A DNA stretch of 64,000 nucleotides from the NCBI GenBank assembly GCA_963786565.1, contig CAWAZR010000011.1, forward strand, positions 271,592 to 335,591, given 5' to 3'. The notes below the pieces were generated by a model. That model was not told the origin of the DNA. It did no database searches and was given only the letters and a program-made list of their open reading frames with translations. Each line of letters opens with the position of its first letter. Positions within the stretch are counted from its first letter, which is position 1. Positions 14,355 through 62,548 of the stretch are shown one piece after another. The stretch comes from an uncultured Acidobacteriota bacterium (GTDB lineage: Bacteria > Acidobacteriota > Terriglobia > Terriglobales > Acidobacteriaceae). A program made the position numbers and the translations under genes.

Positions 14355-15239
14355 ATGCCGGATGTGGGCAAAACCCGCCCGGGAAAGACTCGTCTCGACC
14401 TGCTTCTCGTCGAGCAAGGCTTCGTCCCCAGCCGCGAGCGCGCTCGTGCCCTGATTCTTGCCGGTCGCGTGCTGGTCCGCGAGCAGAAGATTGACAAGCC
14501 CGGGACTGCGATTGCGCAGGACTCCCTGATCCGCCTGCTCGGCGAGGATCAGCCTTACGTTAGCCGCGGCGGATTGAAACTCGCTGCGGCCCTGGAGCAT
14601 TGGAAGATCGACGTCAAGGGCCGCGCGTGCCTCGACGTGGGCGCCTCGACCGGCGGCTTTACCGATTGCCTGCTGCAACACGGCGCCGCGCACGTGACCG
14701 CAGTCGATACCGGCTTCGGGCAGATCCACATGAAGTTGCGCAACGATCCCCGCGTGCAGCTCCGCGAGCGCACCAATGCGCGCCTGCTCAAACCGGGATT
14801 ATTTGCATCTGGGGCACTGCCAGTCCAGGATTCGGATAAACCTTTTTCAGACAGCAAGAAGTGTCAGGGCACGACTTTAGTCGTGCCGAAAATGCAGCGC
14901 AATGAAAGTGGGGCTTTAGCCCCTGAGGGAAATCCCGAACTCACGCTGCTGGTCATGGATGTTTCGTTCATCTCGGCCACGCTTCTTCTGGGACCGGTAA
15001 TGGCCGCCGCGCCGGCGCTGGTAGAGGCCGTAATTCTGGTGAAACCGCAGTTTGAGGCCGGCCGCGAACACGTGGGCAAAGGCGGCATTGTGCGCGATGT
15101 GGCGGCGCATGAATTGGCGATCAATCGAGTGGCGGATGGCGTGCGCGCGCTCGGCTGGCAGGTTGTGGAGACGATCGATTCGCCGATTACGGGCGCCGAG
15201 GGCAACCACGAGTTTCTGCTCTACGCGCGGCGTGCGTGA
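14355..15239 (+). CDS. tlyA: TlyA-family rRNA (cytidine-2'-O)-methyltransferase carrying an internal repeat-derived insertion
   Basis: Start at ATG 14355 with GAAGGAG upstream. S4 domain (RLDLLLVEQGFVPSRERARALILAGRVLV), FtsJ-type SAM motif CLDVGASTGGFTDCLL, and the conserved C-terminal part LVMDVSFISATLLL...VKPQFEAG...GGIVRD. About 40 extra residues lie between NARLLKP and LLVMDVSFIS. Confidence 0.85.
   Translation: MPDVGKTRPGKTRLDLLLVEQGFVPSRERARALILAGRVLVREQKIDKPGTAIAQDSLIRLLGEDQPYVSRGGLKLAAALEHWKIDVKGRACLDVGASTGGFTDCLLQHGAAHVTAVDTGFGQIHMKLRNDPRVQLRERTNARLLKPGLFASGALPVQDSDKPFSDSKKCQGTTLVVPKMQRNESGALAPEGNPELTLLVMDVSFISATLLLGPVMAAAPALVEAVILVKPQFEAGREHVGKGGIVRDVAAHELAINRVADGVRALGWQVVETIDSPITGAEGNHEFLLYARRA
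14861..14930 (+). repeat. family A double-hairpin repeat, copy A1 (inside the tlyA CDS, in frame)
   Basis: GTGTCAGGGCACGACTTTAGTCGTGCC...GGGGCTTTAGCCCCTGAGGGA. The first 31 nt are identical to copy A2 at 21231. Confidence 0.85.
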
Positions 15240-21088: not shown

Positions 21089-21177
21089 AGGGGCGTACCG
21101 TTCACCCTTTAGCTTACCTTTTTGCCATGCCATCCCGCCAAAGTCACTCTCCGTTTGGACCTCGCTGCTTAAATGGC

Positions 21178-21300
21178 GCCGTGAAAGGGCCCGATTGAAA
21201 AGCCTGACTAAGAATGCATCGTAAGGCGCGAAGTGTCAGGGCACGACTTTAGTCGTGCCGCAAACAAAGCTCAATGAGCGGGGCTTTAGCCCCTGGGGGA
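21178..21300 (+). repeat. family A repeat, copy A2, preceded by a degenerate B-type unit
   Basis: CGCCGTGAAAGGGCCCGATTGAAAAGCCTGAC... followed by GTGTCAGGGCACGACTTTAGTCGTGCC...GGGGCTTTAGCCCCTGGGGGA. Confidence 0.8.
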
Positions 21301-21331
21301 CAGCTTGTGCAAGTCCATCTAAACTGGAATC

Positions 21332-38310: not shown

Positions 38311-38464
38311 ACGCCGTGAAAGGGCACGCCTTCAAAGCCTGCCCTGACCGCAGTCGAAGGGTGACATAAAGGCGCAGTCAGTCCGCCCGAATCCGCCGTG
38401 AAAGGGCACGACTTCAGTCGTGCCGCAGAAGGCGCATAAACCCCGGGGCTTTAGCCCCTGACGG
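38311..38464 (+). repeat. composite repeat: B-type unit plus family A copy A3
   Basis: GACGCCGTGAAAGGGCACGCCTTCAAAGCCTGCCCTGACCGCAGTCGAAGGGTGAC ... CCGCCGTGAAAGGGCACGACTTCAGTCGTGCC...GGGGCTTTAGCCCCTGACGG. Same layout as 41108..41296. Confidence 0.85.
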
Positions 38465-38503
38465 GCGTCTTTCAATCGGCGCCGCGGTATGATGCAGCCG
38501 GCT

Positions 38504-41107: not shown

Positions 41108-41296
41108 TGGGTCAGCCTGAATCTTTCGTGAAGGGGCGCGACTTCAAAGCCTGCCCTGAGCGCAGTCGAAGGGTGCCGTAGATACGCAGTCGGTCAGCCT
41201 GAATCCGCCGCGAAAGTTGAATCCGTTGCGAAGGGGCACGACTTCAGTCGTGCCGTAAAGGCGCCAAAATGAGTGGGGCTTTAGCCCCTGAGGGAT
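41108..41296 (+). repeat. composite repeat: B-type unit plus family A copy A4
   Basis: GTCAGCCTGAATC...GGGGCGCGACTTCAAAGCCTGCCCTGAGCGCAGTCGAAGGGTGCC...GTCAGCCTGAATCCGCCGCGAAAG...GGGGCACGACTTCAGTCGTGCC...GGGGCTTTAGCCCCTGAGGGA. Confidence 0.85.
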
Positions 41297-41373
41297 GTTT
41301 TTTCAAACAGACCCAGTAGCTATTTGCGCGGCCCGGCTGAAACTATGGCATGATCGAAGGAAGAGGTGAAGTG

Positions 41374-46536: not shown

Positions 46537-46639
46537 GTGCCGGGTCCTCCGCGACGTAATCCCGCCAATCCCGCCAGGTCCGGAAGGAAGCAACGGTAAC
46601 GGGCTAATGCGTGTGCAGTAGGTCACCCGGTACTTTTTT
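46537..46639 (+). ncRNA. ffs: signal recognition particle RNA (small/4.5S type)
   Basis: CCAGGTCCGGAAGGAAGCAACGG (46574..46596) matches the conserved SRP RNA domain IV motif (E. coli 4.5S ...CAGGUCCGGAAGGAAGCAGCC..., from memory). The 5' GTGCCGGGT pairs with the 3' ACCCGGTAC. A T6 run follows (46634..46639), and a second small palindrome AGCGCCATGGCGCT lies after it. Confidence 0.85.
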
Positions 46640-47895: not shown

Positions 47896-47990
47896 TAAGC
47901 CCGCTTCAGCGGGCATAAGAGGCTAGCCCCAGGCGCAAGCCTGGGGCGGAAGGTCGCTTTCCGAAACCGCAGCCCCAAAGGGGCGTAAGA
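47896..47990 (+). repeat. family C hairpin-cluster repeat, copy C1
   Basis: GCCCGCTTCAGCGGGC ... AGCCCCAGGCGCAAGCCTGGGGC ... GCCCCAAAGGGGCGTAAGAAC. The central hairpin is identical to that at 52338. Confidence 0.75.
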
Positions 47991-48049
47991 ACGACTCCCG
48001 AATCTAAAATCGCTCGCGAGAATCTCGCAGCTTTTTATCAAAAAGACCA

Positions 48050-48084
48050 AGCTGGAAGCTGGTAGCTAGAAGCTGGCAGCTATT
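48050..48084. repeat. heptamer tandem repeat (AGCTGGN)x5
   Basis: agctgga agctggt agctaga agctggc agctatt, about 70 nt upstream of hpf. Confidence 0.7.
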
Positions 48085-51144: not shown

Positions 51145-51369
51145 TACTACGGTCGTAGATAGTCGTTTGGGAGGGAGCAGGGGGATTTATCTCCCTGAAA
51201 AGCAGTGCAAGTTTCGCGGCCTTTAGGCCCGGATTTACGCGACTCGCGCCAAACACAACTGCTGAAGCCGTGCCCTTGTTACTAAGCCCATTGAATCGAA
51301 TTTTTCCGCAACCTGTTAAATCCATCCCGTCATATACCGGCTGCCGCCCTCCCGGTGTAGCATGATCCC

Positions 51370-52305: not shown

Positions 52306-52400
52306 GCTCCAAAGCCCCGCAGGGGCGAAAGATGGTAGCCCCAGGCGCAAGCCTGGGGAATTAGGCAGACCAACAAACATCAGCCCCGTAGGGGCGAAAG
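52306..52400 (+). repeat. family C hairpin-cluster repeat, copy C2
   Basis: GCCCCGCAGGGGCGAAAGA ... AGCCCCAGGCGCAAGCCTGGGGA ... GCCCCGTAGGGGCGAAAGAAC. Confidence 0.75.
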
Positions 52401-55260: not shown

Positions 55261-55263
55261 GCA

Positions 55264-55298
55264 AGCTAGGAGCTAGAAGCTAGCAGCTAGTAGCTGTC
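55264..55298. repeat. heptamer tandem repeat (AGCTAGN)x4 plus one degenerate unit
   Basis: agctagg agctaga agctagc agctagt agctgtc. It lies between convergent genes and ends 4 nt before the MFS stop codon. Confidence 0.7.
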
Positions 55299-55301
55299 TC
55301 T

Positions 55302-56726
55302 TCACGACTGAATCTGTTCCGCCGCCATCTCCTGCGCCGCGGGAATGATGCCCATCTCCTGGTAAATCGGCCGCACCACCACGCGCAGCGCCGGCAGGCG
55401 CGAGAAGAACCATAGTGCACCCAGCCCAATGGCCAGCCCATTAATAATGACGGTCCACTGCGCGCCGGCCAACACCGGTCCCGACACAAACCACAACGGC
55501 GTCGGCGGGATCGCATGCGCCAGCGTTCCAGCCAGCAGGCTGCCGAACGGCGCCATGCCCATAAACGCCATGGTGTAGTAGCTCATCACGCGGCCGCGTT
55601 TGTCTTCGCTGGTCAGGGTTTGGATGATCGTGTTGCTCGACGCCATGCCCTGCATCATGCCCGCGCCCGCCACCAGCACCATCGCCATCGAGAGCCAGAA
55701 GGTGCTCGACAGCCCGAATCCGATCAGCCCTATCCCGAAGACCGCCGCTGCAAATGGAATCATGCGAATCAATCCGCGCACATTCCTGCGCGCGGCCAGC
55801 GAAAGCGCGGAGATGAGCGCGCCCACGCCCATCGCGCCCATCAGGAACCCCAGCGTATGCGCGCCGCCGTGCAGCACCGTGGCCGCAAACACAGGCATCA
55901 GCACCACAAAGGGCATGCCCATCAGGCTAACCACGCCAAATAACAAAAGGATCGTCCGGATGGGCAGGAATCCCGAAACGTAGCTCCAGCCCTCCTTCAT
56001 CTCGTGGAAGGTCGATGTCGCCTTGCGCAGTATCGCGGGCGCATGCACGTGCATCATCAGCAGCGACGCAATTACCGCGATGTAACTCACACCATCGATG
56101 AGGAAGCACCACGCCTCGCTCGTCACCGCGATCAGCATTCCGGCCAGCGATGGGCCAATCAGCCGGGCCACATTCACCATCGATGAGTTGATGGCAATGG
56201 CGTTGCCCAGGTCGGCGCGGTCCTCCACCATCTGCACCATGAACGATTGCCGCCCCGGCATGTCGAAGGCATTGATGATGCCCTGCAAAATGCTCAAGCC
56301 GAGAATCCAGTGAATGGTAATGAGTCCTGAAAACGTAAGCGCGGCCAGCGCGAACGACTGCACCATGGCCAGCGTTTGCGTCCACACCAGAACCTGCCGG
56401 CGATCCCATCGGTCGATCCACACACCCGCAAACGGCGCCACAAGAAACGTAGGAATCTGCCCCGCAAAGCTCACGGTGCCCAGCAACAGCGCCGAATGCG
56501 TGAGCCGGTACACCAGCCACGCCGTGGCGATGCGCGTCATCCACGTGCCGATGAGCGAAATCGTCTGCCCGCCGAAAAACAGCCGGAAGTTGCGATGCCG
56601 CAACGCGCGCCACGCATGCGACATGCCGTCCACCGCGCGCTGCGGCCGGTCTGCTTGTGCGGGCTTGATGGAATCGTCCTTGGTCAAAAAGCTTTCCTTG
56701 TGCGAAGAACCTGGAGACTGGCGCAA
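55302..56726 (-). CDS. MFS transporter (EntS/DUF894-like)
   Basis: About 12 hydrophobic helices and an N-terminal pattern ALRHRNFRLFFGGQTISLIGTWM typical of this MFS subfamily. The start may instead be the internal ATG at 56624. Confidence 0.8.
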   Translation of the reverse strand: MRQSPGSSHKESFLTKDDSIKPAQADRPQRAVDGMSHAWRALRHRNFRLFFGGQTISLIGTWMTRIATAWLVYRLTHSALLLGTVSFAGQIPTFLVAPFAGVWIDRWDRRQVLVWTQTLAMVQSFALAALTFSGLITIHWILGLSILQGIINAFDMPGRQSFMVQMVEDRADLGNAIAINSSMVNVARLIGPSLAGMLIAVTSEAWCFLIDGVSYIAVIASLLMMHVHAPAILRKATSTFHEMKEGWSYVSGFLPIRTILLLFGVVSLMGMPFVVLMPVFAATVLHGGAHTLGFLMGAMGVGALISALSLAARRNVRGLIRMIPFAAAVFGIGLIGFGLSSTFWLSMAMVLVAGAGMMQGMASSNTIIQTLTSEDKRGRVMSYYTMAFMGMAPFGSLLAGTLAHAIPPTPLWFVSGPVLAGAQWTVIINGLAIGLGALWFFSRLPALRVVVRPIYQEMGIIPAAQEMAAEQIQS

Positions 56727-56833
56727 TCCATTTCCTGCGCCGGCCCTGTTTTTCTGCTCACTCTTTACTGTATAAGGACAACTTGCGCCTCGCGTAGCCC
56801 CGCCGCCAGGTAGTCGGTATGTTTGAAACTGTT

Positions 56834-56946
56834 TTGAAAGGGCACGACTTCAGTCGTGCCGCAAACTGCACCCGTCGCGAAAGGGCACGACTTCAGTCGT
56901 GCCGCAAAGTCACCAAAAATGAGCGGTGCTTTAGCCCCTGAGGAAA
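56834..56946 (+). repeat. family A repeat, copy A5 (first hairpin duplicated)
   Basis: GAAAGGGCACGACTTCAGTCGTGCCGCAAACTGCACCCGTCGCGAAAGGGCACGACTTCAGTCGTGCC...GGTGCTTTAGCCCCTGAGGAA, bracketed by GTTTGAAA / TTTCAAAC. Confidence 0.85.
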
Positions 56947-57040
56947 GCTTTTTCAAACTGCCCTCCACCGAGCGCCGACCCGCATCCGGTAAGGTGGACA
57001 ATAGAAGTAGCTGCTTCCTGTTTTTGATGGTGGAATCTTC

Positions 57041-59981: not shown

Positions 59982-60512
59982 CTATGCCACGCGCTCGATC
60001 GTCACCGACTCCAGCACCACCGGCTTATGCGGCTTGTCCTGCGCGTTGCGCGCCACCTTGCTGATGCCGGTCACTATATCCTGGCCCTCCACCACTTCGC
60101 CGAAGATGGTGTGATTGCCCGTGAGCCACGGCGTTGCCGCCACGGTGAGGAAGAACTGGCTGCCGTTGGTACCGGGGCCGGCATTGGCCATCGCCAGCTT
60201 GCCCGGCTTGTCGAAGCTGTGACGCGAGCCCTTGGTCTCATCCTGAAAGCGGTAGCCCGGTCCGCCCATGCCGGTGCCCGCCGGATCGCCGCCCTGGATC
60301 ATGAAATCGGGAATCACGCGATGGAAGATGGTGCCGTCGTAGAGCTTGTCCTTCGACTTGGCGCGCGTCACCGGGTGCGTCCACTCTTTGGAGCCCTCGG
60401 CAAGCTCGATGAAATTCTTTACGGTGATGGGCGCTTCAGATTCGAAAAGGCGCACGGTAATCTTGCCTTCCGAAGTGGTAAAGACGGCGTAAGTTCCTGC
60501 TGCAAGTGCCAT
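59982..60512 (-). CDS. cytoplasmic cyclophilin-type peptidyl-prolyl isomerase
   Basis: FHRVIPDFMIQGGDP and MANAGPGTNGSQFF. No signal peptide. Confidence 0.9.
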   Translation of the reverse strand: MALAAGTYAVFTTSEGKITVRLFESEAPITVKNFIELAEGSKEWTHPVTRAKSKDKLYDGTIFHRVIPDFMIQGGDPAGTGMGGPGYRFQDETKGSRHSFDKPGKLAMANAGPGTNGSQFFLTVAATPWLTGNHTIFGEVVEGQDIVTGISKVARNAQDKPHKPVVLESVTIERVA

Positions 60513-60571
60513 GTGTTTTTCCTCGTTTGAATTGGTGCATTGACTCTTAGATGGTTACATACAAAAGCTTG

Positions 60572-60678
60572 TCATCCTGAGCGGAGCAAGTCGCGTTTTT
60601 GCGGCTTGCGAAGTCGAAGGACCTGCGGTTGTCTTTCTCTCGAACTTCGGATTCGGCTCGCGAAATTGGCAGAGCCCT
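60572..60678. repeat. possible repeat-derived intergenic element related to the B-type unit
   Basis: GTCATCCTGAGCGGAGCAAGTCGCG...GCGAAGTCGAAGGACC shares CCTGAGCG.AG...GTCGAAGG with the B-type units at 38330 and 41150. There is only one copy of this form in the window, so repeat status is not demonstrated here. Confidence 0.3.
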
Positions 60679-60999
60679 TTAACGGCCCAGCGTAAAGATG
60701 ATGTTGATTTTGGTGTCGACCTCGACGGGCTCGCCGTTCAGCAGATAAGGCCGATAGCGCCATTGTTTGACGGCATCGAGCGCGGCCTGTTGCAGAAGAT
60801 CCGGCCCGCTGACAACTTGAAGATCCTGAATAAGACCGTCCTTGCCAATGACCGCAGTCAGCACGACCGTGCCGGATACGCCGGCTTTCTTGGCATCAAT
60901 CGGGTAGACCGGCGCTACCTTGGAGACGAGCAAGCCGACCGCGATGCCCGGGGAGATGATGATCCTCTTTGGCTGAGCTCCCGACATTGGCGCGTTCAT
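60679..60999 (-). CDS. stand-alone TonB C-terminal domain ORF (no signal peptide or anchor)
   Basis: VAPVYPIDAKKAGVSGTVVLTAVIGKDGLIQDLQVVSGPDLLQQAALDAVKQWRYRPYLLNGEPVEVDTKINIIF is a TonB_C fold pattern. Its ATG overlaps the upstream cyclophilin stop (ATGA). Confidence 0.7.
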   Translation of the reverse strand: MNAPMSGAQPKRIIISPGIAVGLLVSKVAPVYPIDAKKAGVSGTVVLTAVIGKDGLIQDLQVVSGPDLLQQAALDAVKQWRYRPYLLNGEPVEVDTKINIIFTLGR

Positions 61000-61715
61000 G
61001 CGCCGGGCGGCGGCGGAGGAGGCGGCGGCGGTGGAACCGGCGGCGGGGCCTGATTGAAGATCGTCACCTTCTCCAGCACCACCGGCGTCAGCGGCTTGTC
61101 ATCGGAATTACGCGGCACGCGTGCAATGGCTTTCACCACAGCCACGCTGGCGTCGTCGCACTGTCCGAAAATCACGTAATGCCCATCGCCCGAATCGAAG
61201 GTCTTTTCGGTGATGAAAAATTGGCTGCCATTCGTATTTGGCCCGCTGTTCGCCATGGCCAGTCGTCCCGGCCGGTCGAAATTGAGATTGGGATCGAACT
61301 CGTCGTCGAAGGCGTAGCCCGGATCGCCCATCCCTGTGCCCGTCGGATCGCCGCCTTGAATCATGAACTCCGGAATCACGCGATGGAAAATGGTGCCATC
61401 GTAATACCGCTTGTGGTGCATCATCTTTTTGGTCGCGGGATCGGCCCAGTCCTTGGTGCCCTCCACCAGGGCAATAAAGTTGGCCACGGCTTTCGGCGCC
61501 TGCCTCTGGAAAAACTGGCAGGTAATGCGGCCCATCGAGGTGTCCATCACCACGTACGGCCCATTGGGAACAGTCATTGCCTCGGGAGTGGCCTGGGGAG
61601 CGTCGGGAATCTCCTGGCTCGCCGGTGTCGACTGTTGCGCAAAGACCGTCAGGGCCGCGCATGCGGCGCAAGCCGCGGCCAGGGCAGAGAAAAGAAGGGT
61701 GCGCTGAAGTTTCAT
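60996..61715 (-). CDS. secreted cyclophilin-type peptidyl-prolyl isomerase with C-terminal poly-proline tail
   Basis: Signal peptide MKLQRTLLFSALAAACAACAALTVFAQ, FHRVIPEFMIQGGDP, MANSGPNTNGSQFF, and a C-terminus NQAPPPVPPPPPPPPPPGA. Confidence 0.88.
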   Translation of the reverse strand: MKLQRTLLFSALAAACAACAALTVFAQQSTPASQEIPDAPQATPEAMTVPNGPYVVMDTSMGRITCQFFQRQAPKAVANFIALVEGTKDWADPATKKMMHHKRYYDGTIFHRVIPEFMIQGGDPTGTGMGDPGYAFDDEFDPNLNFDRPGRLAMANSGPNTNGSQFFITEKTFDSGDGHYVIFGQCDDASVAVVKAIARVPRNSDDKPLTPVVLEKVTIFNQAPPPVPPPPPPPPPPGA

Positions 61716-61858
61716 GCCGACTTCGAGATTAAATCATGCGCCGTGGGCCACGCCACTTCGCGGAACGTGAGCTTGCTGACGTGCCCCCGCGCGCAAAAAG
61801 CTTCTCGTTCCCGAAGCTCCCGTTTTCTAATCTCTTATCTCTGTTCTCTGATCCTTGT

Positions 61859-62548
61859 CTACGGCGCAGGCGGCATCGACTGGCCTTCGCGCACAATCGT
61901 CACCTTCTCCAGCACGATGGGAGTGAGCGGCGTGTCCCCGTGGTGCTGCGTTCGCGCAATGGTCTTCACTACGGCCACGCTGGCGTCGTCGCACTGTCCA
62001 AAGAGCGTGAAGTGCTGGTTGAGCAGGTCGTAAGCCTGTTCTGTGATGAAAAACTGGCTGCCGTTCGTGTTGGGTCCGCTGTTCGCCATCCCCAGCCGTC
62101 CGGGCCGGTCGAAGTTCAGGTTGGGATCGAACTCATCCTCGAAGGTGTACCCCGGCCCTCCCGTCCCGATGCCCGTCGGATCGCCGCCCTGGATCATGAA
62201 CTCCGGAATCACGCGATAGAAGGTCGTGCCGTCGTAGTACCGCTTGTGATGCTGCACCTTCTTGGTTGTGGGATCGATCCAGTCCTTAGTACCCTCGGCC
62301 AGCCCAATGAAGTTGGCCACGGCATTCGGCGCCTGCTTCTGATAGAACTGGCACGTGATGCGGCCCATCGAGGTGTCCATCACCACGTGCGGCCCATTGG
62401 GAACCGTCATCGCCCCGGGAGCGGCCTGCGGAGCGCCGGAAATCTGCTGGCTCGCCGGCGTCGACTGCTGCGCAAGGGCAACTACGGCCCCGCATGCGGC
62501 GCAAGCCGCGGCCAGGGCAGAGAAGAGTAGCGTGCGCTGAGTTTTCAT
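61859..62548 (-). CDS. secreted cyclophilin-type peptidyl-prolyl isomerase (tandem paralogue)
   Basis: Roughly 80 percent identical by eye to the 60996..61715 product, with the same signal peptide and core. It ends REGQSMPPAP, with no poly-Pro tract. Confidence 0.88.
   Translation of the reverse strand: MKTQRTLLFSALAAACAACGAVVALAQQSTPASQQISGAPQAAPGAMTVPNGPHVVMDTSMGRITCQFYQKQAPNAVANFIGLAEGTKDWIDPTTKKVQHHKRYYDGTTFYRVIPEFMIQGGDPTGIGTGGPGYTFEDEFDPNLNFDRPGRLGMANSGPNTNGSQFFITEQAYDLLNQHFTLFGQCDDASVAVVKTIARTQHHGDTPLTPIVLEKVTIVREGQSMPPAP

Follow-up and report, generated by a model that had tools for sequence, protein, structure and literature searches.

An in-frame copy of a two-hairpin REP/RPE-like repeat in the tlyA gene of an Acidobacteriota bacterium, probably a tolerated passenger at a recurrently used site

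The tlyA gene in the 64,000-nucleotide stretch of Acidobacteriota DNA analysed here (the window) reads through a complete copy of a dispersed two-hairpin repeat, here called family A, and we consider it likely that this copy is a tolerated, translated passenger from a REP/RPE-like family that has used the same site recurrently. According to this explanation, an intact copy would have landed, beside an older remnant, in the codons for the beta3-beta4 connection of TlyA and would be translated, adding about 37 residues as a disordered loop. Since the element has one stop-free sense frame (...GALAPEG...) and lengthens the gene by a whole number of codons, it would simply be read along with the gene, and since the enzyme is still under purifying selection, the insert would be a tolerated passenger rather than a new protein module. 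Copies would land or be retained at this site repeatedly, and other family members would overwrite or duplicate what is there or insert within it. The features are listed in Table 1.

Table 1. Features of the tlyA locus and other full copies of the element in the window
Feature	Position	Strand	Description
tlyA ORF	14355-15239	+	294 aa, intact; S4 and FtsJ 2'-O-methyltransferase
Arg143 codon	14781-14783	+	aligned to M. tuberculosis TlyA Arg137; 6 residues before the insert
Extra segment	14804-14926	+	no counterpart in L001; net gain 111 nt / 37 aa; residues ~150-190; DNA and protein alignment with L001 and L207
Left, diverged part of insert	14804-14850	+	alignment with L002, L003 and L206
Intact two-hairpin element in tlyA	14851-14935	+	covariance model 74.5 bits, E 5e-22, full model length
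Hairpin 1	14868-14887	+	GGCACGACTTTAGTCGTGCC; 8-bp stem GGCACGAC/GTCGTGCC, loop TTTA; read as (Q)GTTLVVP
Hairpin 2 and 3' motif	14910-14930	+	GGGGC TTTA GCCCC, then TGAGGGA; read as GALAPEG
Phe205 codon	14967-14969	+	aligned to M. tuberculosis TlyA Phe157; ~10 residues after the insert
Intergenic copy	21223-21305	+	GTGTCAGG subfamily, as the tlyA copy; orthologous to L002:17470-17550
Intergenic copy	38388-38470	+	covariance model
Intergenic copy	41218-41300	+	covariance model; best score in the window, 81 bits
Intergenic copy with extra hairpin-1 unit	56824-56950	+	copy 56867-56950, preceded by the extra unit 56824-56866

The host gene encodes a recognisable TlyA. Its product matches the Pfam families S4 (E 1.7e-8) and FtsJ (E 5.9e-38) and M. 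tuberculosis TlyA in 7s0s (E 2.9e-49), its AlphaFold model superposes on the TlyA C-terminal domain in 5kyg with a TM score of 0.80, and GASTGGFT, ERTNAR and DVSFIS are invariant, as are all catalytic and SAM-binding motifs. By homology the product is TlyA, the 16S/23S rRNA cytidine-2'-O-methyltransferase, with methylation of 16S C1409 and 23S C1920 as its predicted activity. The window protein aligns to 7s0s in two separated blocks (residues 11-149 and 195-292 against chain residues 20-159 and 163-260), so that about 42-45 residues are extra relative to M. tuberculosis TlyA, in line with the surplus of some 40 residues claimed by an earlier, sequence-only reading; the surplus over the closest insert-free orthologue is 37 residues. 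This nearest syntenic orthologue, L001 (~94% identical DNA locally, 93.5% in the tlyA core), has no insert and a loop of 14 residues, PDSLENPNQGPEKT, vs 51 residues in the window. The distance from ERxNAR to DVSFIS is 16-22 residues in 67 of 69 distant TlyAs among the matches listed (a mostly insert-free set from a metagenome scan for TlyA relatives, used as a control for loop length) vs 58 in the window. The length comparison among orthologues, proposed earlier as a means of overturning the insertion, found short loops in insert-free orthologues, and the insertion stands.

The AlphaFold model of the window protein has a normal TlyA fold in which the insert forms a disordered loop: no secondary structure is predicted for residues 157-191, whose pLDDT stays below 50, and the loop joins two strands. 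This is the outcome of the structure-model check suggested in the earlier reading. The insert falls in the codons for the beta3-beta4 connection of the methyltransferase domain, a location predicted to be permissive or at the surface, as for RPE-like elements. The extra segment (~14804-14926) exceeds the intact element, its left 50 nt being older, diverged material. In this left part the window and L002 have diverged no faster than the background (6/66 differences), while L003 and L206 have homologous sequence with indels. It contains GGGGCACTGCC (14811-14821, translated SGAL), which looks like a decayed hairpin 2, and it probably represents what is left of an older, decayed unit.

The intact part is a full family member. 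A covariance model that we derived from 111 copies of other genomes aligns to it over its whole length, bearing out the claim that the ORF reads through a complete copy, and both hairpins are present, with hairpin 2 itself (GGGGCTTTAGCCCC) at 14910-14923 and followed by TGAGGGA. Its predicted RNA fold has an energy of -33.2 kcal/mol (z = -3.3), and its score is the second best among the five full copies in the window. Nucleotides 14858-14888 reproduce the previously noted identity of 31 nt with the copy at 21230, the other four copies lie between long ORFs, also as noted before, and the repeat is translated as ...SDSKKCQGTTLVVPKMQRNESGALAPEGNP..., in agreement with the earlier translation. Judged from the sequence, GALAPEG is the only stop-free sense frame of hairpin 2 plus TGAGGGA. 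The hairpin-1 sequence occurs at 6 sites in the window, that is, 12 matches over both strands vs 0.02 expected by chance.

Family A elements are dispersed, about 80 nt long and composed of two hairpins in direct order separated by a spacer of ~20 nt; hairpin 1 combines a variable stem with a conserved CTTYAG loop region and the 5' motif TTTTGAAAGG or GTGTCAGG. The tlyA copy has the 8-bp stem, the CTTYAG loop, the spacer, GGGGCTTTAGCCCC and TGAGGGA in the same direct order. A DNA-pattern scan recovered the hairpin-2/TGAGGGA motif in at least 119 stretches, every one of them acidobacterial (phylum Acidobacteriota), and hairpin 2 does not vary between the orders of Terriglobia; the two-hairpin family is spread across Acidobacteriota of the class Terriglobia. 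In the 111 copies, pairing is kept at 98.6% of hairpin-1 stem positions and each of the 8 pairs has changed on both sides, a degree of covariation reached by none of 500 shuffles. Rfam yielded no match at the gathering score in the window, nor any with E <= 1 when six loci with the element were searched; the translated repeat peptide likewise matched nothing in Pfam or NCBIfam, and literature string searches for the element returned nothing. The best reading is that family A comprises undescribed REP/RPE-like elements, of a kind already known but new as a family and in this phylum. In a separate word-index peptide search, the translated repeat gave 32 candidates, all of them small hypothetical ORFs and none a TlyA.

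Selection on the host gene bears on whether tlyA could be a young pseudogene, inactivated by the insertion and with stop codons yet to come. TlyA is dispensable in some bacteria, and the insert does lie between the equivalents of two rRNA-contacting residues of the M. tuberculosis enzyme: Arg137, which contacts the tip of rRNA helix 69, and Phe157, which stabilises the flipped target base (PMC9168844). Against this stand the core dN/dS of 0.07-0.13, which includes pairs in which both genes carry the insert (0.113 for the window and L002, 0.128 for the window and L003, 0.104 for L206 and L208), the dS of 0.3-1.5 that separates the insert-bearing lineages compared, the invariance of the catalytic and SAM-binding motifs, and the 55 TlyA clusters that hold frame and length through inserts of 96-270 nt. 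We regard a pseudogene as very unlikely: to judge from the substitution pattern, tlyA with its insert is not dead and purifying selection continues. That selection suggests that an insert so close to the rRNA-contacting residues is harmless, and we infer that the insert-bearing protein is made and active. Of the possibilities raised by the sequence-only reading, a tolerated loop insertion is thus the one that agrees with the AlphaFold loop, the dN/dS and the dozens of in-frame insert-bearing orthologues, and the same three observations reject a recently inactivated gene.

Among the 120 closest TlyA clusters, 55 carry family members at the same site as the window; some of these have a different hairpin 1, some are in tandem or decayed, and in one case an insertion is nested in another. 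At this site 54 nt are exactly duplicated in tandem in L006, the hairpin-1 loop of L208 contains a further hairpin of 41 nt flanked by TTTA/TTCA, the first unit in L005 is decayed, and P0103 retains a deletion scar, GEGTPQLT. The informative sites of the window locus are mosaic, L001-like overall (251:122) and L002-like over 14500-14899 (14:29), and the insert allele, which is present in some close relatives and absent from others, appears to be exchanged among them through homologous recombination. How many times it was gained or lost independently is uncertain, the TlyA tree being a weak neighbour-joining tree of ~230 columns. The idea that the tlyA insert is always of the genome's own hairpin-1 subfamily was abandoned: L004 has a GTACGGGC-type hairpin in tlyA and a CACGAC-type 8.5 kb away.

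It is extremely unlikely that the tlyA copy arose as an artefact when the metagenome-derived genome was assembled or polished. L002 and L003 stem from one sample and their element cores are nearly identical, which would allow cross-talk, but the insert allele recurs in numerous assemblies made independently from different samples by different sequencing centres (P0001 on 2 contigs, P0002 on 10 and P0088 on 17; JGI, ENA and NCBI sources), the frame is preserved in every case and the insert flanks diverge at the background rate. Another proposal is that the extra segment is a functional protein module, such as a ribosome- or partner-binding loop, whose likeness to the repeat arose by chance. The segment is near the helix-69-binding surface and is retained in many lineages, but it is predicted to be disordered, its peptide has no Pfam or NCBIfam match, and hairpin 1 is read in differing frames and variants across orthologues (QGTTLVVP, GHDFSRA, KGTGFSPY, GGGFNPR). 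The same DNA moreover occurs between genes and in unrelated proteins, in both orientations, and its codons show nonsynonymous change at or above the level of the core, with synonymous change suppressed. We therefore give the protein-module proposal very little credence.

In favour of the passenger reading, the insert shows no constraint at the protein level. Between the window and L003 the element codons differ at 0 synonymous and 3 nonsynonymous positions at a core dS of 0.75, and between the window and L206 1.5 of ~20 synonymous sites differ at a core dS of 1.46; synonymous divergence is 4-8 times lower in the element than in the host gene. These comparisons point to a real nucleic-acid-level constraint on the hairpins in tlyA, which may be kept through selection on their structure or through turnover and gene conversion from the genomic pool. 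The element core shows 1 difference in ~95 nt vs L002 and L003, from genomes that are 78-89% identical, and this near-identity could reflect recent exchange, or metagenome assembly or polishing cross-talk, rather than constraint. In the more distant TlyAs L206, L208 and L006 the stems are conserved and the spacer is not, so that recent exchange is the likelier source of the 1-in-95 difference; the freely diverging spacer likewise tempered our use of the extreme conservation of the whole element as proof of selection.

The hairpins might instead be retained in tlyA and other genes for a role at the nucleic-acid level, with the coding insertion as the price of the signal. As candidate roles, they could form a strand-oriented DNA signal used when the chromosome is replicated or handled, bind a protein, or fold in the mRNA and so influence its translation or stability. 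Besides the low synonymous divergence, the covariation of hairpin 1, the invariance of hairpin 2 across Terriglobia orders, a strong GC-skew strand bias with local concordance of orientation (below) and the status of the tlyA copy as a top-scoring, undecayed family member all favour such a role. We nevertheless consider it unlikely, for older units at the site decay (the left part of the window insert and the first unit of L005), the nearest relative manages without the insert, the spacer between the hairpins diverges freely among more distant TlyAs, and turnover or gene conversion from the pool of copies explains the conservation equally well. Copies in both gene orientations in many unrelated genes further speak against regulation specific to tlyA. 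The earlier suggestion that the hairpins modulate translation from the mRNA finds no gene-specific support, since this element occurs in many unrelated genes and in both orientations, although the nucleic-acid-level constraint on the hairpins is real.

In-frame copies are not confined to tlyA. Of 122 copies sampled from Acidobacteriota genomes by a DNA-pattern scan followed by ORF and Pfam analysis, at least 13 lie in frame within housekeeping genes with Pfam domains on both sides, namely genes for AlaRS (three), UvrC (two), MetRS, HypF, Dus, MutS, CarB, Lhr, HemD and an FAD oxidase, two of the 13 having been assigned by homology to scanned ones; five further copies have a Pfam domain on one side only. 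Like RPE-like in-frame palindromic elements, the copies in tlyA and in these genes occupy intact ORFs with no stop codon or frameshift. The earlier remark that REP-like elements are uncommon in intact housekeeping ORFs does not hold for this lineage of Acidobacteriota, where they are common.

The distribution of copies over the two DNA strands suggests how the family may have spread. Adjacent copies are concordant in orientation 17:2, and in 92 of 113 loci the sense strand is the one with negative GC skew (p = 9e-12), GC skew serving as a proxy for replication direction rather than a mapped origin; the bias persists in 21 of 27 loci where most ORFs are on the other strand. By this proxy, family A shares the strand-specific distribution linked to replication direction that marks IS200/IS605 and class 3 TnpA(Y1) systems. 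A role as a sense-oriented 3'-UTR terminator or stabiliser was considered and found unsupported in the window, where copies lie in divergent, convergent and co-directional gaps and all face the same way. No HUH/Y1 transposase gene (including RAYT and TnpA) was found by a regex motif scan of 1.46 Mb, a sample that is uninformative for single-copy genes. The element ends TTGAAAGGGC and GCCCCTGAGGGA match at 5/8 positions as inverted repeats in the consensus, and the nested element of L208 is the sole case with a flanking 4-nt TTYA duplication; with no clear terminal inverted repeats or target duplications defined, the case for mobility rests on the distribution of copies. We infer that the element spread by a single-stranded-DNA route of the HUH/Y1-transposase type. 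An alternative, which we think improbable, is that the element serves Terriglobia as a class-wide, strand-oriented nucleic-acid signal, recognised for instance by a domesticated HUH enzyme or while the DNA is single-stranded at the fork during replication; were this so, its structure would be selected so strongly that intact copies persist in essential genes, and proteins would carry translated hairpins.

Family A combines traits of several known systems. As far as RPEs (Ogata et al., 2000) are summarised in PMC3733652, they too are short dispersed palindromic repeats, many of them in frame in functional housekeeping genes and translated into loops of the host proteins. The likeness is one of functional class, and there are differences: family A belongs to free-living soil Acidobacteriota with large genomes and not to reduced intracellular alpha-proteobacteria, is shorter (~80 nt), has two direct hairpins with a common apical loop, reuses sites with different variants and shows a strong strand bias. 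With REPs and REPINs (Di Nocera et al., 2013; PMC3733652) it shares GC-rich, multicopy stem-loops that are mostly intergenic or near gene ends and sometimes clustered, and the minority of REPs inside coding regions are, like family A, often in DNA-repair and tRNA/rRNA-related genes (PMC3733652). It differs in having no GTAG or CGTC foot tag (consensus nnTTnTGAAAGGGCACGGCTTCAGCCGTGCCGnAAA...GGGGCTTTAGCCCCTGAGGGA), in units that are direct rather than inverted as in REPINs or BIMEs, with neighbours concordant, in a hairpin 2 that is conserved class-wide instead of being species-specific, and in having no linked RAYT gene in the 1.46 Mb scanned, RAYT being a single-copy gene.

Closer in phylum are the REPtron-like structures that flank class 3 TnpA(Y1) genes of Acidobacteria and Planctomycetes (Quentin et al., 2018; PMC6006769), among them high-copy 'atypical secondary structures', of which there are ~600 in Solibacter usitatus (PMC6006769). 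Like these and other IS200/IS605-derived elements, family A is hairpin-based and has no long terminal repeats, and its strand bias is of the sort that replication-coupled single-strand transposition generates. This is a likeness to REPtron structures and not an established identity: the CnGA 5' foot was not found 5' of family A hairpins, CTGA being conserved 3' of hairpin 2 instead, and the 1.46 Mb scanned contained no TnpA gene. MITEs by which ORFs are extended or interrupted, such as the Coxiella QMITEs (PMC5896051) and enterobacterial examples (PMC3184786), are likewise small non-autonomous repeats that provide host coding sequence. Unlike them, the main family A element has no convincing terminal inverted repeats or target-site duplications and is built from two hairpins, not from the remains of an IS.

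In-frame palindromic elements are textbook knowledge mainly for Rickettsia, where the usual account invokes weak selection in small intracellular populations. Family A presents the same phenomenon at scale in free-living soil Acidobacteriota, where it affects enzymes central to translation, repair and the synthesis of nucleotides (TlyA, AlaRS, MetRS, UvrC, MutS and CarB). When translated, the repeat makes proteins appear longer, breaks up profile alignments and yields many spurious small 'hypothetical proteins' in Acidobacteriota annotations. The family offers a second, independent system in which to study how proteins absorb foreign loops, and it bears on the reuse of sites and on the spread of hairpin elements, with the strand bias as a testable lead to single-strand transposition.

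The tlyA reading frame encodes a protein of 294 residues in which Pfam recognizes S4 and FtsJ methyltransferase domains; the nearest solved structures are the TlyA proteins of M. tuberculosis (7s0s, E 3e-49) and S. thermophilus (3hp7). The alignment with 7s0s splits into two blocks (window residues 11-149 and 195-292 against chain residues 20-159 and 163-260), so that the window protein has about 42-45 residues lacking a counterpart, and both hairpins of the repeat, with the 3' motif TGAGGGA, lie under this gap. Re-reading the sequence, we found every feature that the sequence-only reading had described for the tlyA repeat. Six sites of the window match the hairpin 1 pattern (12 matches over both strands; 0.02 expected), and hairpins 1 and 2 together define five full copies. 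A covariance model of the element built from 111 copies in other genomes likewise gave five full copies, plus one or two that have diverged, and each of these lies on the + strand; the tlyA copy ranks second by score and is the only one inside a gene, the other four full copies lying between long ORFs on our ORF map, as had been claimed. A second repeat module (GTGAAAGGGCACGCCTTCAAAGCCTGCCCTGAnCGCAGTCGAAGGGTG…) immediately precedes some two-hairpin copies in the window and in other loci (L025, L035, L110), stands in place of hairpin 1 in some genomes, and in translation (…PERSRR…) is apparently nested within the TlyA insert of homologue cluster P0034.

Coordinates of the tlyA gene, the element copies and other features
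Feature	Location	Strand	Remarks
tlyA ORF	14355-15239	+	
Hairpin 1 in tlyA	14868-14887	+	GGCACGACTTTAGTCGTGCC
Hairpin 2 in tlyA	14910-14923	+	GGGGCTTTAGCCCC, then TGAGGGA
Family copies in the window	14851-14935, 21223-21305, 38388-38470, 41218-41300, 56824-56950, 51161-51238	+	
Second repeat module	38315-38404, 41127-41216, 21161-21206		
Nested hairpin in a tlyA insert	L208:7019-7083		41 nt, CCCCATCGAC…GTCGATGGGG
Copies in AlaRS	L029:487-570, L074:7510-7593, L097:3778-3861		
Copies in UvrC	L071:186-269, L075:6882-6965		
Bacterial small SRP RNA	46538-46635	+	71 bits
Acido-Lenti-1 RNA	52313-52358	-	Rfam
Acido-Lenti-1-like stretch	47911-47946		36 nt, 89% identical to Acido-Lenti-1 above; absent at Rfam gathering score
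Three diverged tandem repeats	59997-62252		~830-1060 nt; identity 62-85% across the compared segments of the repeats; seemingly a run of paralogous genes
Unrelated repeat pair	32341, 33174		833-nt spacing, shared with the tandem repeats above
Short repeat AAGCTGGTAGCTAGAAGCTGGCAGCTA	48042-48082, 55263-55303		7.2 kb apart; each internally reiterated, 14-nt period

Comparison with three syntenic orthologous loci, which share the neighbors DUF218, DUF92, a lactonase-like gene, tlyA, DUF805 and NAD kinase, identifies the extra tlyA segment as an insertion. The closest locus, L001 (local DNA identity to the window ~94%, tlyA core 93.5%), has no insert and carries the loop PDSLENPNQGPEKT, and the insert is present in L002 (~89% and 90.5%) and L003 (~78% and 79.8%). 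The loop measures 51 residues in the window versus 14 in L001, a net gain of 111 nt, and the distance from ERxNAR to DVSFIS is 16-22 residues in 67 of 69 distant metagenomic TlyA genes, 21 in L001 and 58 in the window. Since repeat-free TlyAs thus have short loops, with no homologous segment of equal length, the reading of the segment as an insertion stands. An assembly artefact as its source is unlikely and was rejected, because many independent assemblies carry the insert allele. In insert-free TlyAs of this clade (P0014, P0026, P0032, P0090 and others), the equivalent of window residues 148-197 is a low-complexity loop of 14-26 residues with a variable number of QEKN/QEKD units; length change is tolerated there even without the element.

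Family-derived inserts occupy exactly the window position in 55 of the 120 closest TlyA clusters, either in the window form (QGTT[LS]VVPQM…GALAPEG) or as KGTGFSPYI…GALAPEG, RGGGFNPRM…ALAPEG or SGHDFSRA…GALAPEG, some of them in two- or three-unit arrays (P0005 reaches 105 residues). At the DNA level, seven such inserts are the same element, differing in the hairpin-1 stem (as in L004, GTACGGGC/GCCCGTAC) or in reading frame (as in L005, where a frame shift in hairpin 1 yields GHDFSRA). The L006 insert holds an exact tandem duplication of 54 nt, and in L208 a different hairpin, with TTTA on one side and TTCA on the other, is nested in the hairpin-1 loop and lengthens the insert by 45 nt, or 15 in-frame residues; this looks like targeted insertion into a hairpin loop with a 4-nt duplication. 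Decay is also seen: hairpin 2 of the first L005 unit is degraded, and in P0103 a GEGTPQLT scar is all that remains. Within the window insert, the leftmost 50 nt show background divergence from L002 (6/66 differences) and an indel relative to L003, and look like an older remnant unit. A neighbor-joining tree of the core gathers most insert-bearing TlyAs into a single large clade and places the window, P0002 and P0003 amid insert-free sequences. When the window, L001 and L002 are compared at informative sites, the window sides with L001 overall (251:122) and with L002 around the insert, at 14500-14899 (14:29). This mosaic is suggestive of an insert allele that may have been carried between lineages by homologous recombination, and only suggestive because further mosaic stretches occur near the insert.

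The sequence-only reading had also considered a recently inactivated gene. With the insert masked, the Nei-Gojobori dN/dS of the tlyA core is 0.07-0.13 in all pairs compared, including those in which both genes bear the insert (window-L002 0.113, window-L003 0.128, L206-L208 0.104), and the pseudogene reading was rejected on this ground. AlphaFold, given 120 homologues, predicts the TlyA fold (TM 0.80 to 5kyg), with residues 157-191 at pLDDT below 50 and without secondary structure between strands 134-137 and 196-204; together with the core dN/dS, this predicted disordered loop supports a tolerated loop insertion, as had been proposed. By alignment, window Arg139, Arg143 and Phe205 correspond to M. 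tuberculosis Arg133 and Arg137, which approach the helix 69 tip, and Phe157, which stabilizes the flipped target base (PMC9168844). The insert starts 6 residues past Arg139/Arg143 and ends ~10 residues short of Phe205, where strand beta4 has its N-terminal end; from the topology of a parallel Rossmann-type sheet, that end should face away from the cofactor edge.

We compared substitutions over 29 element codons with core-gene divergence. Synonymous and nonsynonymous differences numbered 0 (~9 expected) and 3 for window-L003 (core dS 0.75), 1.5 of ~20 sites and 11.5 for window-L206 (1.46), and 3 and 7 for L206-L208 (0.47); nonsynonymous change therefore equals or exceeds the core rate and synonymous change is suppressed. 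Judged from these codons, the tlyA element is conserved as nucleic acid rather than as peptide. In the 111 copies that come from other genomes, pairing in hairpin 1 holds at 98.6% of positions (slid controls 33-46%), all eight of its pairs show changes on both sides, and the observed covariation was reached in 0/500 shuffles; the two hairpins have the apical sequence G[GA]CTTYAG[CT]C in common. Because more distant TlyAs retain the stems while the spacer drifts, recent exchange or conversion accounts for the near-identity of the window element with those of L002 and L003 better than selection on every base does. The hairpins are clearly kept up as nucleic-acid structures; a tlyA-specific role in modulating translation from the mRNA, another of the earlier proposals, found no support.

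Scanning one genome per species for exact matches to hairpin 2 with its 3' motif recovered at least 119 stretches; among the matches listed, all are from Acidobacteriota (Terracidiphilus, Granulicella, Edaphobacter, Terriglobus, Ca. Sulfotelmatobacter, Ca. Solibacter, Acidoferrales), with hairpin 1 ~20 nt upstream of hairpin 2 in every case. Deep within long stop-free frames lie 25 of 122 sampled copies; 13 have Pfam domains spanning them or on both sides (2 assigned by homology to scanned ones), and another five are flanked by a domain on just one side (TilS, MnmA, MBL hydrolase, PMT_2 glycosyltransferase, COX2-like protein). At recurrent sites in AlaRS (three genomes) and UvrC (two), copies share the same position and carry different hairpin-1 variants (as in AlaRS) or 5' motifs; the remaining hosts among the 13 are MetRS, HypF, Dus, MutS, CarB, Lhr, HemD and an FAD/Fe-S oxidase. 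Open frames through hairpin 2 number one sense (GALAPEG) and two antisense (PSGAKAP, PQGLKP), and exactly these peptides are observed. Many public calls of 43-97-aa 'hypothetical proteins' (P0121-P0133) are translated intergenic copies, an annotation artefact.

Neighboring copies in a locus share orientation 17:2 (L004, L008, L021, L030, L051, L073, L074, L091, L092, L109, L113, L117 and the window), and window copies are all + regardless of flanking gene orientation. In 92 of 113 loci (p = 9e-12) GC skew is negative on the strand that reads GGGGCTTTAGCCCCTGAGGG; the window shows the same (skew -0.049, every copy on +), and the association holds in 21 of 27 loci where most long ORFs lie on the opposite strand; by the usual bacterial rule, orientation is thus tied to replication direction. 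Such a link characterizes elements whose movement runs through single-stranded DNA at the replication fork (IS200/IS605 type; reviewed in PMC6006769), and the present element would spread by the same route. Acidobacteria have their own Y1/HUH transposase group, associated with high-copy hairpin structures (PMC3733652; PMC6006769). Because a motif scan of 1.46 Mb found no Y1/HUH transposase gene, no link between this group and the family emerged, and the 5' CnGA foot reported for those structures is not evident in the element, we infer this route only tentatively, as plausible but somewhat short of even. The element has no match in Rfam, its translation no model in Pfam or NCBIfam, and its motif strings were not found in a literature string search. 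A palindromic repeat translated within an intact housekeeping gene is an already known kind, to which the Rickettsia RPEs and REPs in ORFs belong; the family itself, its phylum-wide spread in free-living bacteria, its reuse of the same protein loops and its strong strand bias appear undescribed.
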